In this document: piece by piece, positions 2,787 through 12,040 of the stretch
Numbering within the stretch: position 1 is the first letter of the stretch
How the letters are laid out: the number at the start of each line of letters is the position of its first letter
Source of the DNA: Centroscyllium fabricii
Taxonomy: Eukaryota
Assembly (NCBI GenBank): GCA_051313645.2
Contig: JBNRSN020000027.1
Span: 54,932,001 to 54,979,397 of the forward strand
Direction: 5' to 3'
Length of the DNA stretch: 47,397 bases
The notes under the pieces: model-generated
What the model saw: the letters and a program-made list of their open reading frames with translations, nothing else
What the model was told of the DNA's origin: nothing
Database searches by the model: none
Program-made: the position numbers and the translations under genes

Positions 2787-3485
2787 TTAGTTTAAATCCT
2801 CCCTCACAGCACTAGCAAACACTCCCCCCAGCACATTGGTTCCAGCCCTGCCCAGGTGCAGACCGTCCGGTTTGTGCAGGTCCCACCTCTCCCCGAACCA
2901 GTTCCAATGTCCCAAAAACTTGAATCCCTCCCCCTTGCACCAATCTTCCAGCCATGTATTTATCTGAAGTATCCTTCTATTTCTACTCTGACTAGCACGT
3001 GGCACCGGCAGCAATCCTGAGATTACTACCTTTGAGGTCCTGCTTTTTAATTTATCTCCTAACTCCCTATATTCTGATTTAAGGACCTCATCCCGTTTTT
3101 TACCTATATCGTTGGTGCCTATGTGCACCACGACAACTGGCTGTTCACCCTCCCTTTCCAGGATGTTCTGCAGCCGCTCGGAGACATCCTTGACCCTTGC
3201 ACCAGGGAGGCAACACACCATCCTGGAGTCTCGCTTACGGCCACAGAAATGCCTCTCTATTCCCCTAACAATTGAATCCCCTATGACAATAGCTCTTCCA
3301 CTCTTTTTCCCTCCAGCCTGTGCAGCAGAGCCTCTCCTGGTGCCAGGAAGATGACTGCTGCTGGCTTCCTTTGATAGGTCATCTCCCCCAACAGTACTCA
3401 AAGGGCTGTATCTGTTAGAGAGGGAGATGGCCACAGGGGTTCCCTGCACTACCTGCCTATGTCTGTTTCTCGGCTTGCTGGTCAC
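2787..3485 (-). pseudogene. CR1 ORF1 C-terminal part (SGNH/GDSL esterase domain), 5'-truncated
   Basis: Motifs IGDSIVRG, CLPGA, HIGTNDIG, DGLHL are present. The N-terminal CxxC zinc finger seen at 6904-7854 is missing. Confidence 0.9.
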
Positions 3486-3589
3486 CCTGTTGCAGCTGTG
3501 AATGATGTTGTGGGATCACGATGGATAACATTACTGATTCATGCTCGACTAAGTTACCTTCAGCAAGGCCTGAGAGATACCAGAACTAA

Positions 3590-3862
3590 GAGGTTAGAAC
3601 TATCAGGAAAGATTGAACGGGCTGGAGCTCTTGTCTCTAGAAAAGAGCAGGCTGAGGGGGTGACCTGATCGAGGTCTTCAAAATTATGACGTGGTTTGAT
3701 AGGGTAGACGTAGAGAAGATGTTTCCACTTGTAGACAACGAGTCCAGAACTAGAGGCCATGAATTTAAGACGGTCATCAATAAATCCAGTAAGGAATTCA
3801 GGAAAAACCTCTTTACCCAGAGAGTGTTTAGAATGTGGAACTTGCTCCCACTGGGAGTAGTT
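3590..3862 (+). mobile_element. Older CR1 3' fragment, left part, interrupted by the full-length CR1
   Basis: Encodes DRVDVEKMFPL..SRTRGH..FTQRVFRMWNLLPLGVV and continues in frame at 8874 (EVDSTDAFKGKL). Confidence 0.85.
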
Positions 3863-3952
3863 AGAATCATAGAAGATAGGAGCAGGAGTAGGCCATTCAG
3901 CCCTTCGAGCCTGCTCCGCCATTCAATGAGATCATGGCTGATCTTTAGCAAG

Positions 3953-6907
3953 CTAGTACCCCGTCCCCGCCTTTTCTCCATAACCTTTAATCCCTTTAGC
4001 TTGAAGAAATATATCCAATTCCCTCTTGAATATGTTTAATGAACTGGCCTCCACCGCCCTCTGTGGCAGGGAATTCCACAGGCCCACCACTCTCTGAGTG
4101 AAGAAATTCTTCCTCATGTCTGTCCTAAATGGTTTACCCCTTATCCTTAGACTGTGGCCCCTGGTTCTGGACTCCCCCGCCATTGGAAACATTCTCTCTG
4201 AATCTAACCTGTCCAGACCTTTCAGAATTTTATACGTCTCAATGAGATCACCTCTCAATCTTCTAAACTCCAACGAGTACAAGCCCAGACTACACAATCT
4301 CTCCTCGTAGGTCATTCCTGCCATTCCCGGAATCAGCCTGGTGAAACGCCGCTGCACTCCTTCCATGGCAAGAACATCCTTCCTCAGGCGAGGCGACCAG
4401 AACTGTACACAATACTCGAGGTGTGGTCTCACCAGTGCCTTGTACAGCTGCAGTAAGGTATCCTTATTCCTATACTTGAACCCTCTTGATATGAAGGCCA
4501 ACATACCATTTGCCTTCCTAACCGCCTGCTGCACCTGCGTGCTCGCCTTCAGCGACTGGTGCACAAGAACACCCAGGTCTCTCTGCACCTCCCCATCTCC
4601 CAATCTATTGCCATTTAAGTAGTAATCTACCCTCCTGTTTTTGCCCCCAAAGTGGATAACCTCACATTTATCCACATTATAGTGCATCTGCCATCTATCT
4701 GCCCAGTCCCCCAACTTATCCAAATCTCCCTGTAACTTCCTGACACCCTCTTCAGAGCCTGCTCCCCCTCCTAGTTTGGTGTCATCCGTGAATTTGGAGA
4801 TATTACATTCAATTCCCTGATCCAGATCATTAATATATATTGTAAACAGCTGAGGTCCCAGGACAGACCCCTGCGGTACTCCACTAGTCACCGGCTGCCA
4901 CTCAGAAAACGAGCCGTTAATTCCAACTCTCTGTTTTCTGTCTGCCAACCAGTTCCCTATCCACATCAAAACTTTGCCCCCAATCCCATGAGCCTTAATT
5001 TTGCATGCTAATCTTTTATGTGGAACCTTATCGAAGGCTTTCTGGAAGTCAAGGTACACCACATCTACTGGCTCTCCCCCATCTATTTTCCGAGTTACTT
5101 CCTCAAAGAATTCCAATAGATTAGTTAAACATGATTTACCTTTTGTAAATCCATGTTGACTCTGTCCGATCTCATCCCTAATTGTCAAATGCTCCGAGAT
5201 TACATCCTTGATAATGGACTCGAGCATTTTGCCCACTACTGATGTAAGGCTTACTGGTCTATAATTCCCTGCTTTCTCTCTGCCCCCCTTTTTAAATAGT
5301 GGGGTAACATTAGCCACCCTCCAATCCGTGGGTACTGATCCAGAGTCTATCGAGTTCTGGAAAATGATCCTTAAAGCACCCTCTATTTCCAGGGCTACCT
5401 CTTTAAGTACCCTAGGATGTAGATTATCAGGCCCTGGGGATTTGTCGGCCTTCAATCCCTTCAACTTCCCCAAAACCATCTCCCTAGAAATACTGATATC
5501 TGTTAGCTCCTCCCTTGCATTAGACCCTATGTTCGCTGCTATCCCTGGGAGGTTGCTTGTGTCCTCCTTTGTGAAAACAGTACCAAAATATGAATTTAGT
5601 TGGTCTGCCATTTCTTTATTCCCCATTATATATTCCCCTGAATCGGACTGCAAGGGACCGACTTGGGATTTTACCAATCTTTTCCTCTTGATGTACCTAT
5701 AAAAGCTTTTGCAGTCAGTTTTTATGTTTGCCGCCAGCTTACATTCGTAATCTATCTTTCCCCTCCTGATTAATCCCTTTGTCTTCCTTTGCTGTATCCT
5801 GAACTGCTCCCAATCTTCCGGCCTAGTACTTTTTTTGGCCAATTGATATGCCCATTTTTTGGATTTAATGTTGTCCCTTATTTCCCTTGTTATCCATGGT
5901 TGAGTCACCTTTCTAGGTTTATTCTTATGCCAAACCGGTATGAACGAGTTCTGTATTTCTTCCATCCTATACTTGAATGCTTGCCATTGTCTATCCACAT
6001 TCAATCCCCCCAGGAACACTGCCCAATCTATCTTGCTTAATTCCCTTCTCATACCTTCATAATTCCCTTTATTTAAATTCAGGACCTTAGTCTCTGAGTT
6101 GATCTTTTCACTTTCCATCCCAACTGAGAATTCGATCATATTATGATCGCTCCGACCCAAGGGGCCTCGTACAACTAGATTGCTAATTAGTCCCTTATCA
6201 TTGCACAATACCCAGTCTAAGATGGCCTGATCCCGAGTTGGTTCCTCGACATATTGGTCCAGATACCCATCCCGTAGACATTCTAGGAATTCCTCCTCCT
6301 CAGTATTTTTACTAACTTGGCTAGTCCAATCAATATGTAGATTAAAGTCGCCCATGACGACAGCTGTGCCCTTATTGCAAGCTTCTCTAATTTCCCTTTT
6401 TATGCCGTCCCCCACCTTCATATTACTATTTGGAGGCCTGTATATAACTCCCACTAATGTTTTCCGCCCTTTACTATTTCTTAGTTCTACCCATATAGAT
6501 TCCGTATCATCTGAGTTAATATCCTTCCTTTCAATTGCATTTATCCCCTCTTTCACCAGCAATGCCACCCCACCTCCCTTTCTTTTGTGCCGATCCTTTC
6601 TGAATGTTGTATACCCCGGGATGTTGAGTTCCCAGCCTTGCCCCCCCTGCAGCCATGTTTCCGTAATTCCAATCAACTCATATTTGCTTACCTCTATTTC
6701 CACAGCTAGTTCATCCACCTTGTTCCTAATGCTTCTTGCATTAAGATACAAAGCCTTTAGGCTTGTTTTGATCACACTATTATGAATTTGTTTGACCCTT
6801 TGTGTTTCTCTCCCTTGCTTATTGTTTCTCACCTTCCTACCATTTGTTTCTGGCTTCCTATGACCTCCCTCTTTTCCACTACCTATCCCAACCCCCTGCC
6901 AAGTTAG
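3953..6907 (-). CDS. CR1 ORF2: apurinic-type endonuclease + reverse transcriptase (no ATG start; frame open back to the ORF1 stop region)
   Basis: APE motifs LNARSI, GITETWL, YRPP, GDFN, SDH. RT motifs KSPGPD, NYRPVSLTS, QHGF, DFQKAFD, GVPQGSVLGP, FTDD. The 'M' at 6832 in the track is a GTG codon. Confidence 0.96.
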   Translation of the reverse strand, partial: LTWQGVGIGSGKEGGHRKPETNGRKVRNNKQGRETQRVKQIHNSVIKTSLKALYLNARSIRNKVDELAVEIEVSKYELIGITETWLQGGQGWELNIPGYTTFRKDRHKRKGGGVALLVKEGINAIERKDINSDDTESIWVELRNSKGRKTLVGVIYRPPNSNMKVGDGIKREIREACNKGTAVVMGDFNLHIDWTSQVSKNTEEEEFLECLRDGYLDQYVEEPTRDQAILDWVLCNDKGLISNLVVRGPLGRSDHNMIEFSVGMESEKINSETKVLNLNKGNYEGMRRELSKIDWAVFLGGLNVDRQWQAFKYRMEEIQNSFIPVWHKNKPRKVTQPWITREIRDNIKSKKWAYQLAKKSTRPEDWEQFRIQQRKTKGLIRRGKIDYECKLAANIKTDCKSFYRYIKRKRLVKSQVGPLQSDSGEYIMGNKEMADQLNSYFGTVFTKEDTSNLPGIAANIGSNAREELTDISISREMVLGKLKGLKADKSPGPDNLHPRVLKEVALEIEGALRIIFQNSIDSGSVPTDWRVANVTPLFKKGGREKAGNYRPVSLTSVVGKMLESIIKDVISEHLTIRDEIGQSQHGFTKGKSCLTNLLEFFEEVTRKIDGGEPVDVVYLDFQKAFDKVPHKRLACKIKAHGIGGKVLMWIGNWLADRKQRVGINGSFSEWQPVTSGVPQGSVLGPQLFTIYINDLDQGIECNISKFTDDTKLGGGAGSEEGVRKLQGDLDKLGDWADRWQMHYNVDKCEVIHFGGKNRRVDYYLNGNRLGDGEVQRDLGVLVHQSLKASTQVQQAVRKANGMLAFISRGFKYRNKDTLLQLYKALVRPHLEYCVQFWSPRLRKDVLAMEGVQRRFTRLIPGMAGMTYEERLCSLGLYSLEFRRLRGDLIETYKILKGLDRLDSERMFPMAGESRTRGHSLRIRGKPFRTDMRKNFFTQRVVGLWNSLPQRAVEASSLNIFKRELDIFLQAKGIKGYGEKAGTGY

Positions 6908-7854
6908 TTTAAACCCTCCCCAACCATGCTAGCAAACCTCCCCGCCAGGATATTGGTCCCCCTCCGGTTAAGGTGGAGACCGTCGTCCCCATACAAGTCC
7001 CACCTTTCCCAGAAACAGGGCCAGTTATCCAGGAAACTAAAGCCCTCCCTCCTGCACCAACTCTTGAGCCACGTATTAAGCTGCTCTATCCTCCTATTCC
7101 TATACTCACTAAATCGTGGCACAGGGAGTAATCCAGAGATTACAACCTTTGAGGTCCTGCACTTTAATTTTCTGCCTAGCTCCCTGAATTCTTGTTGCAG
7201 GACCTCATCCCTCTTTTTACCTATGTCGTTGATTCCTATGTGTACAACGACCTCTAACTGGTTTCCCTCCCTTTCCAGGATGCCCTGCAGCCGTCCCGTG
7301 ACATCCTTGACCCTGGCACCAGGGAGGCAACAGACCATCCTGGAGTCACGTCTACGGCCACAGAAACGCCTATCTGCTCCCCTTACGATAGAGTCCCCTA
7401 CCACTATTGCTCTCTCACGCCTTTTCCCCCCCAGCTGAACAGCAGAAGCAACCCCAGTGCCCGGAGGTTGGCCACTGTTGCATTCCCCTGGTAGCTCGTT
7501 CCCCCCAACAGTATCCAAAACGGCATACTTGTTCGTGAGGGGGATGGCCACAGGGGTTTCCTGCTCTACCTGCCTGGCCTTACTGTTCTTTCTGCTGGTC
7601 ACCCAATTCCCTTCTGCCTGCACACCCTTAGCCTGCGGTGTGACCAGCTCACTGTATGAGTGATCCACGCACCTCTCAGTATCGCGAATGCTCCATAACC
7701 CATCCACCCTCAGTTCCAGTGCCGCAATGCGGTCAGTCAGTAACTGAAGGTGGACGCATTTCCCACACACATGGTCACCAGGGACTCCAGTGGTGACCCT
7801 GGCTTCCCACATGTGGCAGGAGGAGCAAAGCACGGCACCGAGCTCCACTGACAT
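6904..7854 (-). CDS. CR1 ORF1: zinc finger (CxxC..CxxC) + leucine zipper + SGNH esterase domain
   Basis: CSSC...CGKC, then heptad LTDRIAALELRVDGL, then GDS / PGA / GIND / DGLH blocks. ATG at 7854. Confidence 0.95.
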   Translation of the reverse strand: MSVELGAVLCSSCHMWEARVTTGVPGDHVCGKCVHLQLLTDRIAALELRVDGLWSIRDTERCVDHSYSELVTPQAKGVQAEGNWVTSRKNSKARQVEQETPVAIPLTNKYAVLDTVGGNELPGECNSGQPPGTGVASAVQLGGKRRERAIVVGDSIVRGADRRFCGRRRDSRMVCCLPGARVKDVTGRLQGILEREGNQLEVVVHIGINDIGKKRDEVLQQEFRELGRKLKCRTSKVVISGLLPVPRFSEYRNRRIEQLNTWLKSWCRREGFSFLDNWPCFWERWDLYGDDGLHLNRRGTNILAGRFASMVGEGLN

Positions 7855-8269: not shown

Positions 8270-8873
8270 ATTGGCCCCGCCCCCTGGCTCCGACCTCTGC
8301 TAGGTCCGCTCTGCCCCGCCCCCTGGCTTTAAAAAAAGCCCGCGAAACTCGGTCCGCTCTGCTCGCTGCTGCTGCGGTCTCTCGGGACCCACCTAGCTCA
8401 GCTCTGCGCTGCTCGGCTCTTTATAGCCGCCTCCTCGCTGCTGTTGCAGCGCTCCGACCTCTGCTTGGTCCGCTCTGCCCCGCCCCCTGGCTTTAAAAAA
8501 AGCCCGCGAAACTCGGTCCGCTCTGCTCGCTGCTGCTGCGGTCTCTCGGGACCCACCTAGCTCAGCTCTGCGCTGCTCGGCTCTTTATAGCCGCCTCCTC
8601 GCTGCTGTTGCAGCGCTCCGACCTCTGCTAGGTCTGCTCTGCCCCGCCCCCTGGCTTTAAAAAAAGCCCGCGAAACTCGGTCCGCTCTGCTCGCTGCTGC
8701 TGCGGTCTCTCGGGACCCACCTAGCTCAGCTCTGCGCTGCTCGGCTCTTTATAGCCGCCTCCTCGCTGCTGTTGCAGCGCTCCGACCTCTGCTAGGTCCG
8801 CTCTGCCCCGCCCCCGGCTTTAAAAAAAGCCCGCGAAACTCGGTCCGCTCTGCTCGCTGCTGCTGCGGTCTCT
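8270..8873 (-). repeat. ~3.6 tandem copies of a 164-bp GC-rich monomer forming the CR1 5' end (putative internal promoter)
   Basis: CTCCGACCTCTGCT recurs at 8288, 8452, 8616 and 8780. On the element strand each unit has GGGGCGGGG and GGCTATAAAG. Confidence 0.93.
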
Positions 8874-11434: not shown

Positions 11435-12040
11435 AAAATGGGTGTGGTAGTGTAGTGGCTGTGGTACTGAACGAGCAACTCGGAGGTCATGAGTTCAAGT
11501 CCCACCACGATAAGTTCTGAAATTGAATTCAATAAATTTGATACAGGTTGAGCACCGGTAATCTGGCGCCCTCGGGACCAGGCCGGTGCCGGACCACTGA
11601 AAATTCCGAACCTCTGAAAGTTCGGGTAGAACGCGCGGGTAGAACACTCCCCGGGGCCCGGAGCGCGCGGGTAGAACACTCCCCGGGAGGCAGCCCGGGA
11701 ATAGAAGACTTACAAGCCTTAAAAAACAGAAACCCGAAGCCTTCGGCGCTCGCCCTCCCTTCGCAGGAAACGGTGGCGCTGCCGAGCGGCTGCTCCGCAA
11801 ACCGAAGACTGCCGGTTTCGATTCATGCCGGACCACTGAAGGTGCCGGACCATCGGGTGCCGGATTACCGGTGCTCAACCTGTATTACCAAATCTGGTAA
11901 ATTTGTGGGTTAAAAATATGACCATTTATTAATAGGGAAGGAAACCTGGCCTGACCTACAAGTGGCTCCAGTCTCAGACTCTGAAGTGGACGAGTCACTC
12001 AGCTGTCAGGGCAGCTTGGCGTAGGTTATAAATTCCAATG
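11435..12040 (+). mobile_element. Old tRNA-derived SINE split by a MITE
   Basis: B-box-like GAGTTCAAGTCCC, then AATTGAATTCAATAAAT. A related reverse fragment lies at ~29690-29850. Confidence 0.45.
11544..11882. mobile_element. Tigger/pogo-like MITE, family A
   Basis: TA|CAGGTTGAGCACCGGTAATC...GATTACCGGTGCTCAACCTG|TA, with internal GGTAGAACACTCCCC repeats. Confidence 0.9.

Follow-up and report, generated by a model that had tools for sequence, protein, structure and literature searches.

The stretch of DNA analyzed here (the window) comprises 47,397 nucleotides of Centroscyllium fabricii (NCBI GenBank assembly GCA_051313645.2, contig JBNRSN020000027.1, positions 54,932,001 to 54,979,397 of the forward strand). 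Its minus strand carries two long interspersed nuclear elements (LINEs) of the CR1 type, of which copy 2 is full length. We describe the junction between the two open reading frames (ORFs) of these elements, a slippery heptamer, U_UUA_AAC, at which programmed -1 ribosomal frameshifting probably takes place. The elements appear to be CR1 from an earlier reading of the sequence, the domain order, and the type of tail.

Layout of the CR1 elements in the window

The esterase of copy 2 ORF1 was detected as PF13472 (E=1e-15), and ORF2 contains PF03372, PF14529, and PF00078, that is, an apurinic/apyrimidinic endonuclease (APE) followed by a reverse transcriptase (RT). Copy 2 has no long terminal repeats (LTRs), ends in a short repeat tail instead of poly(A), and no target-site duplication was identified for it. 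The 164-bp units of its 5' untranslated region (UTR) are probably stacked promoter monomers. Upstream of ORF1, at 8160-7870 on the minus strand, the same UTR has motifs resembling splice donors (GGTAAGT, AGGTAGGT) and splice acceptors (a pyrimidine tract with CAG), which suggest that a leader may be spliced.

On the minus strand, the junction of copy 2 reads GAG GGT TTA AAC TAA CTT GGC AGG GGG TTG GGA TAG G. The sequence bore out the initial annotation in that the heptamer lies at 6913-6907, in ORF1 phase and directly before the stop, and in that the -1 frame is open into the endonuclease: this frame is stop-free from 6928 to 3953, and its first ATG after the ORF1 stop is codon 162 (6421), inside the Pfam endonuclease match of residues 55-254. 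The statement that the first AUG cuts the endonuclease is based on the Pfam coordinates, because a PDB sequence search with the endonuclease region returned no match. The four ATGs closest to the junction share the ORF1 frame, where they open peptides of 2-11 amino acids. A slip at this junction would yield 316 + 984 = 1,300 amino acids, and a domain search found no protease domain in the predicted fusion. Within the 47-kb window, the heptamer followed by a stop occurs only twice, at the CR1 junctions (6913 and 2796). As had been noted initially, copy 1 also has the heptamer, stop, and G-run, but its -1 frame, which had been taken to be open, stops about 60 codons past the junction owing to the loss of one nucleotide in an A-run near 2630. 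Several sister copies of copy 1 have an open -1 frame (e.g., L032, L035, L036, and L042).

Table 1. Positions of the CR1 features in the window
Feature	Position	Strand	Description
Copy 1 heptamer and stop, G-run also present	2787..2796	-	Different CR1 family, ORF1 68% identical, 5'-truncated
3' UTR and short repeat tail, copy 2	3862..3952	-	Sequence read directly
ORF2, -1 frame: APE endonuclease and RT	3953..6907	-	First AUG at 6421, inside APE
Purine-rich linker, ~53 codons	6746..6907	-	-1 frame without stop or AUG; other frames with 4 and 6 stops
G-run (G5), 10-nt spacer, candidate stimulator	6892..6896	-	Junction comparison
ORF1 stop UAA, directly 3' of heptamer	6904..6906	-	Sequence
Slippery heptamer U_UUA_AAC, ORF1 phase	6907..6913	-	Sequence
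ORF1, 316 aa, ends ...GEGLN	6907..7854	-	Two CxxC pairs (zinc finger), coiled region, SGNH/GDSL esterase
5' UTR tandem array, copy 2	8287..8873	-	3.6 x 164 bp, GC-rich, 98% matches

Conservation of the slippery site and candidate stimulators

In the genome from which the window comes (7.2 Gb), the junction was identical at 30 of 30 loci of the window family. A pattern search of this genome that left ten junction bases free gave 4,580 matches to the unshifted junction and 3 to a pattern with one extra base. Among the first 100 unshifted matches listed, 99 were TTTAAACTAA, and in all three +1 copies the T or A run was lengthened. A single-copy indel or an assembly error behind the frame change is excluded by these copy counts.

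The nearest named homologues of ORF1 belong to sharks and rays, and the named sources include sharks, rays, a teleost, frogs, turtles, lizards, and birds. Among the 120 homologues listed, 84 of the 93 with a DGxH motif end in Leu-Asn. Copy 2 ORF1 is 61% identical to one protein, P0009, that is labelled as a Pseudomonas aeruginosa SGNH hydrolase and ends in Gly-Leu-Asn; this protein probably stems from host DNA in a bacterial assembly. Junction DNA was obtained by own-genome searches with divergent ORF1 queries and by a metagenome scan (52 loci, of which 30 were dropped as lacking the ORF1 C-terminus and 3 end before the junction). In total, 154 loci reach the ORF1 C-terminus, and 24 representative junctions were picked by hand from them. 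ORF1 identity between the main groups is only 20-39%.

We found that TTTAAAC followed by a stop is in phase at 23 of the 24 representative junctions, as expected from the initial annotation; in the lineage of L074 and L080, five additional residues precede Leu-Asn, with heptamer and phase retained. The overlapping G_GGU_UUA, which had also been pointed out, is present at the window junction but is incidental, since it occurs only in the two representatives of the window family. The first T of the heptamer is present in all 24 representatives, although it is the wobble base of a residue with nine identities; in the representative ORF1s, TTA accounts for 15% of Leu codons, AAC for 42% of Asn codons, and T for 29% of third positions. 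Because the wobble U is fixed under nine different amino acids, the constraint acts on RNA, and with TTA and AAC also fixed, nucleotide conservation goes beyond what the protein needs. The site is an X_XXY_YYZ heptamer in 0-frame phase, as in canonical -1 programmed frameshifting. U_UUA_AAC is among the heptamers most prone to shifting on mammalian ribosomes, and a slip site starting G_UUA is tolerated in equine arteritis virus (PMC5009743).

The downstream ORF is likewise placed as frameshifting would require. The APE motif is reached in the -1 frame without a stop at 15 of the 17 junctions where it could be located, through open linkers of 35-79 codons, 5 of which (of 15) lack Met; the +1 frame of the linkers holds 2-13 stops. 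A scan of viral contigs returned no relative. A search for longer ORF1 homologues returned six proteins and no fusion of ~1,300 amino acids, which is weak evidence.

These comparisons, together with a naturally fused sister subfamily described below, strongly support the -1 frameshift and the 1,300-residue fusion of the initial annotation, if not its G-quadruplex stimulator. At the end of CR1 ORF1, some ribosomes would slip back by one base on U_UUA_AAC, tRNA-Leu and tRNA-Asn presumably re-pairing in tandem from UUA-AAC to UUU-AAA. Slipping ribosomes would make a zinc finger-esterase-APE-RT fusion of 1,300 amino acids, and the others would stop and release the ORF1 protein (ORF1p), which would probably be in excess over the fusion, as in gag/gag-pol.

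Downstream of the heptamer, G occupies offsets 10-13 in 23, 22, 22, and 21 of 23 junctions, respectively. The -1-frame codon at this G-run is GGG in 19 of 22 junctions (background, 53 of 178 Gly codons), and the wobble base before it is G in 22 of 22. This bias, too, suggests a constraint on RNA. Of the G-tracts proposed initially, a single G-run at a fixed 10-nt spacer is conserved, but not a multi-tract quadruplex: of the 23 junctions, none has a three-tier motif and 13 have a two-tier one. Quadruplex-driven frameshifting has been demonstrated for G3 tracts, the best spacer being 6-8 nt (PMC3919603), and with no four G3 tracts at that distance, a G-quadruplex was rejected as the conserved stimulator; it is unlikely, and less likely than a bound factor. 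We favour such a factor, which would act through the G-run at its 10-nt spacer and might be aided by ribosomes pausing at the stop, although this idea is tentative and slightly less likely than not. It draws on analogy with the PCBP-assisted arterivirus site, which also has a long spacer: the arterivirus nsp2TF shift is stimulated in trans by nsp1beta with PCBP, and the spacers of arterivirus and cardiovirus sites are 11-14 nt (PMC5009743). The long spacer is a resemblance only; the CR1 site differs in its G-rich motif and -1 shift, and a trans factor is a candidate only by analogy.

A fused sister subfamily and other CR1 sequences

A distant ORF1 query (P0044) led to a sister CR1 family in which open frames of 1,314-1,318 codons are numerous, and its fused subfamily is a new finding of this work. 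Split copies of the family read TTA AAC TAA, whereas fused copies read TTA AAT CTA, where one inserted T produces Leu-Asn-Leu within a single 1,314-codon ORF; this is the very junction predicted from a -1 slip. Exact junction matches in the genome numbered 811 fused and 2,319 split. The fused copies (L126-L144 and L203-L244, e.g., C745:69927218-69931200) are dispersed and differ in their 3' flanks, save for one duplicated pair, and 11-nt target-site duplications were found at L126 and L137.

In a tree of 38 copies selected for long frames (20 fused and 18 split), the fused copies formed their own clade with a support of 1.0. The divergence in this tree was 1.26% within fused and 1.87% within split copies, and the fused subfamily is the younger; the two are about 3% apart. 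A further 40 copies taken in genome order were added to give a 77-copy tree (L142 was omitted because it nearly duplicates another copy, and L213 was not covered by the alignment). Nested sets of ancestral alleles persist in older fused copies at 78 diagnostic sites, which matches what is expected of successive source elements after fusion.

Nonsynonymous/synonymous counts in the fused ORF2 were 23/29 for shared changes and 382/128 for singletons (p=1e-5); they were 16/20 and 379/124 with split-type alleles removed, and 17/19 and 256/92 (p=0.002) when only the 39 copies carrying three split-type alleles or fewer were counted. ORF2 of the fused subfamily is under purifying selection, and fused elements therefore likely relied on their own ORF2 product with ORF1 attached. 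Judged from the sequences, the fused protein likely works. A caveat is that the linker of this family contains AUG codons.

The fused site is still a heptamer, U_UUA_AAU, whose -1 frame stops two codons on. We speculate that the logic is inverted in this subfamily, with fusion by default and free ORF1p made through slippage. In eight fused copies of one sub-lineage, one G of the G-run is lost, a hint of relaxed constraint arising from a single event. Many fused copies share frames of 985, 681, or 669 codons, and L141 and L142 share flanks; together with the loci on C1333, C856, C719, C712, and C778, this suggests that dead copies were duplicated segmentally or in tandem. Long and short forms of the 3' UTR, about 80 nt apart, were also seen among L126-L140.

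Elsewhere in the window, an older CR1 3' fragment lies in opposite orientation at 3577-3862 (plus strand), and copy 2 was inserted into or against it; more than 12 other truncated CR1 fragments are present. At 11495-11913, similar frames on both strands, each starting with YRLSTGN, point to long terminal inverted repeats, possibly those of a miniature inverted-repeat transposable element (MITE).

Alternative explanations and significance

Several observations weigh against frameshifting as the route to CR1 ORF2, or against parts of that interpretation. The 24 representatives are related and are not independent trials. Of the 19 loci from outside the own genome that reach the junction, 13 are exact, 4 have the heptamer without the stop or the phase, and 2 are decayed. 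Three of 90 ORF1 homologues end in Glu-Leu-Asn, which at the protein level is incompatible with the first U. A classical 3' hairpin or pseudoknot 5-9 nt downstream was not found: over the 70 nt downstream, folding z-scores ranged from -2.5 to +1.2 and were below -2 in 2 of 23 junctions (pseudoknots were not modelled explicitly), and a local hairpin was rejected as the stimulator because this signal was not consistent across the 23. Long-range pairing of the G-run with a region near the ORF2 end reached -22 kcal/mol in the window element, but the partner is not conserved: in the 7 other elements that could be oriented, out of 14 given, the pairing was -13 to -18 kcal/mol and not with the best partner. 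As to the fused subfamily, only 2 of the 40 fused copies sampled in genome order are intact, the support of the fused clade drops to 0.75 for 58 copies in the 77-copy tree, and some fused copies look mosaic. Exchange with unsampled split subfamilies could inflate the selection signal of fused ORF2, and fused ORF1 gave no signal of purifying selection (11/2 versus 108/44, p=0.5), a comparison of low power.

The same material bears on termination-reinitiation, in which ribosomes stop at the ORF1 end and begin again at an AUG or near-cognate codon close by, as in SART1 (on UAAUG) and likely L1. This mechanism is described in PMC3708506 (section 3) and PMC5009743. Like CR1, L1 and SART1 translate a second ORF from a bicistronic LINE RNA; unlike the scheme proposed for CR1, they use unconventional initiation or UAAUG reinitiation and make a separate ORF2 protein (PMC3708506, PMC5009743). 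Met occurs in frame, at scattered positions, in 10 of 15 open linkers, L077, L081, L087, L095, and L073 have an in-frame AUG no more than 5 nt from the stop, L098 has a UAAUG overlap, and the window linker has near-cognate GTG codons, e.g., at 6832 and 6775. However, no AUG overlaps or adjoins the ORF1 stop in the window family as it does in some non-shark loci, and none precedes the APE in that family (4,580 matches) or in three other lineages. Moreover, reinitiation leaves unexplained why the wobble U and the TTA and AAC codons are fixed, why the register is always -1, and why no stop interrupts the linker back to the heptamer; the fused subfamily, for its part, propagated with no stop at the junction. 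As the general route, reinitiation is therefore improbable. It may play a part where stop and AUG adjoin, as is possible at the non-shark loci, and two routes to ORF2 might coexist at junctions of bird or reptile type that have both heptamer and adjacent AUG (the hosts of such loci, e.g., L077, L081, L087, L095, and L098, are inferred from peptide likeness only).

It is less probable still that the heptamer is kept for another reason (the Leu-Asn end, a binding site on RNA or DNA, or a splice signal) and that ORF2 comes from a spliced or internally initiated message. Leu and Asn are indeed invariant columns of the ORF1 alignment, yet a constraint on protein has no means of fixing synonymous codons, nor the wobble position of a residue that itself varies. 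Just past the window heptamer, CTAAC..CAG-G looks like a branch point with its acceptor, and donor- and acceptor-like motifs occur in the 5' UTR; against splicing, other families lack the AG or have it elsewhere (e.g., L043), a pyrimidine tract is lacking, and the spacing from the putative branch point is far too short by established splicing rules. RNA contigs show no recurrent joint across the junction, which is weak evidence, as these are contigs and small shares. Frame change at RNA synthesis, with the polymerase adding one base in the U3A3 run, has very little to recommend it. In its favour, the three genomic +1 copies all have a longer T or A run, but many more than 3 such copies beside 4,580 would be expected had edited RNAs commonly templated retrotransposition, runs of three bases are short for polymerase slippage, and the motif, phase included, fits the rules of tRNA re-pairing.

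Frameshifting at the CR1 junction would have counterparts in known systems. The TRE5-A and TRE3-A elements of Dictyostelium are, like the CR1 elements here, APE-type two-ORF non-LTR retrotransposons, and are stated to need a -1 frameshift for ORF2 (PMC5911963); they differ in having an unrelated ORF1 and in clade and host. The novelty considered in the initial annotation accordingly narrows to CR1, since LINEs as such have this precedent. With coronaviruses of the infectious bronchitis virus (IBV) type and retroviral gag-pol, CR1 shares a structural ORF followed by a polymerase in the -1 frame, and with the former U_UUA_AAC itself (PMC5009743); it differs in lacking a conserved hairpin or pseudoknot at 5-9 nt and in having a G-run at 10 nt and an adjacent stop. 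The CR1 subgroup 7 with type IV ORF1 (zinc finger/leucine zipper plus esterase) matches the present elements in ORF1 domains, APE-RT ORF2, and short repeat tail, and the single-ORF CR1 subgroups carry a PHD domain, whereas the fused subfamily here carries the whole esterase ORF1 (PMC4120745). The excerpted text of PMC4120745 does not mention 'frameshift', 'overlap', or 'fused', and that of PMC5009743 does not mention 'CR1'. A literature search, whose scope did not extend to the original CR1, SART1, L1, and TRE5-A papers, returned no report of frameshifting in CR1.

Many non-mammalian vertebrates have CR1 among their dominant LINEs, and translation of LINE ORF2 is usually modelled on L1-style reinitiation. 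How ORF2 is translated from the bicistronic LINE RNA is regarded as an open question (PMC3708506, section 3). From the sequences compared, the CR1 junction is a deeply conserved recoding signature. A fuller picture is plausible, with the balance slightly against all of its parts holding together: esterase-type CR1 LINEs from sharks to birds would make a gag-pol-like fusion by -1 frameshifting with a new type of stimulator, namely a short run of G kept 10 nt from the heptamer and beside a stop codon, and one subfamily, with fusion as the default and free ORF1p made by slippage, would still retrotranspose. If frameshifting is confirmed, ORF1 would be covalently part of the active CR1 enzyme, and half of the endonuclease would be missing from annotations in which ORF2 begins at the first AUG. 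The junction would also represent an ancient -1 signal outside viruses, with a stimulator of an unusual kind. As a natural in-frame control, the split and fused sister subfamilies allow the question to be tested directly.

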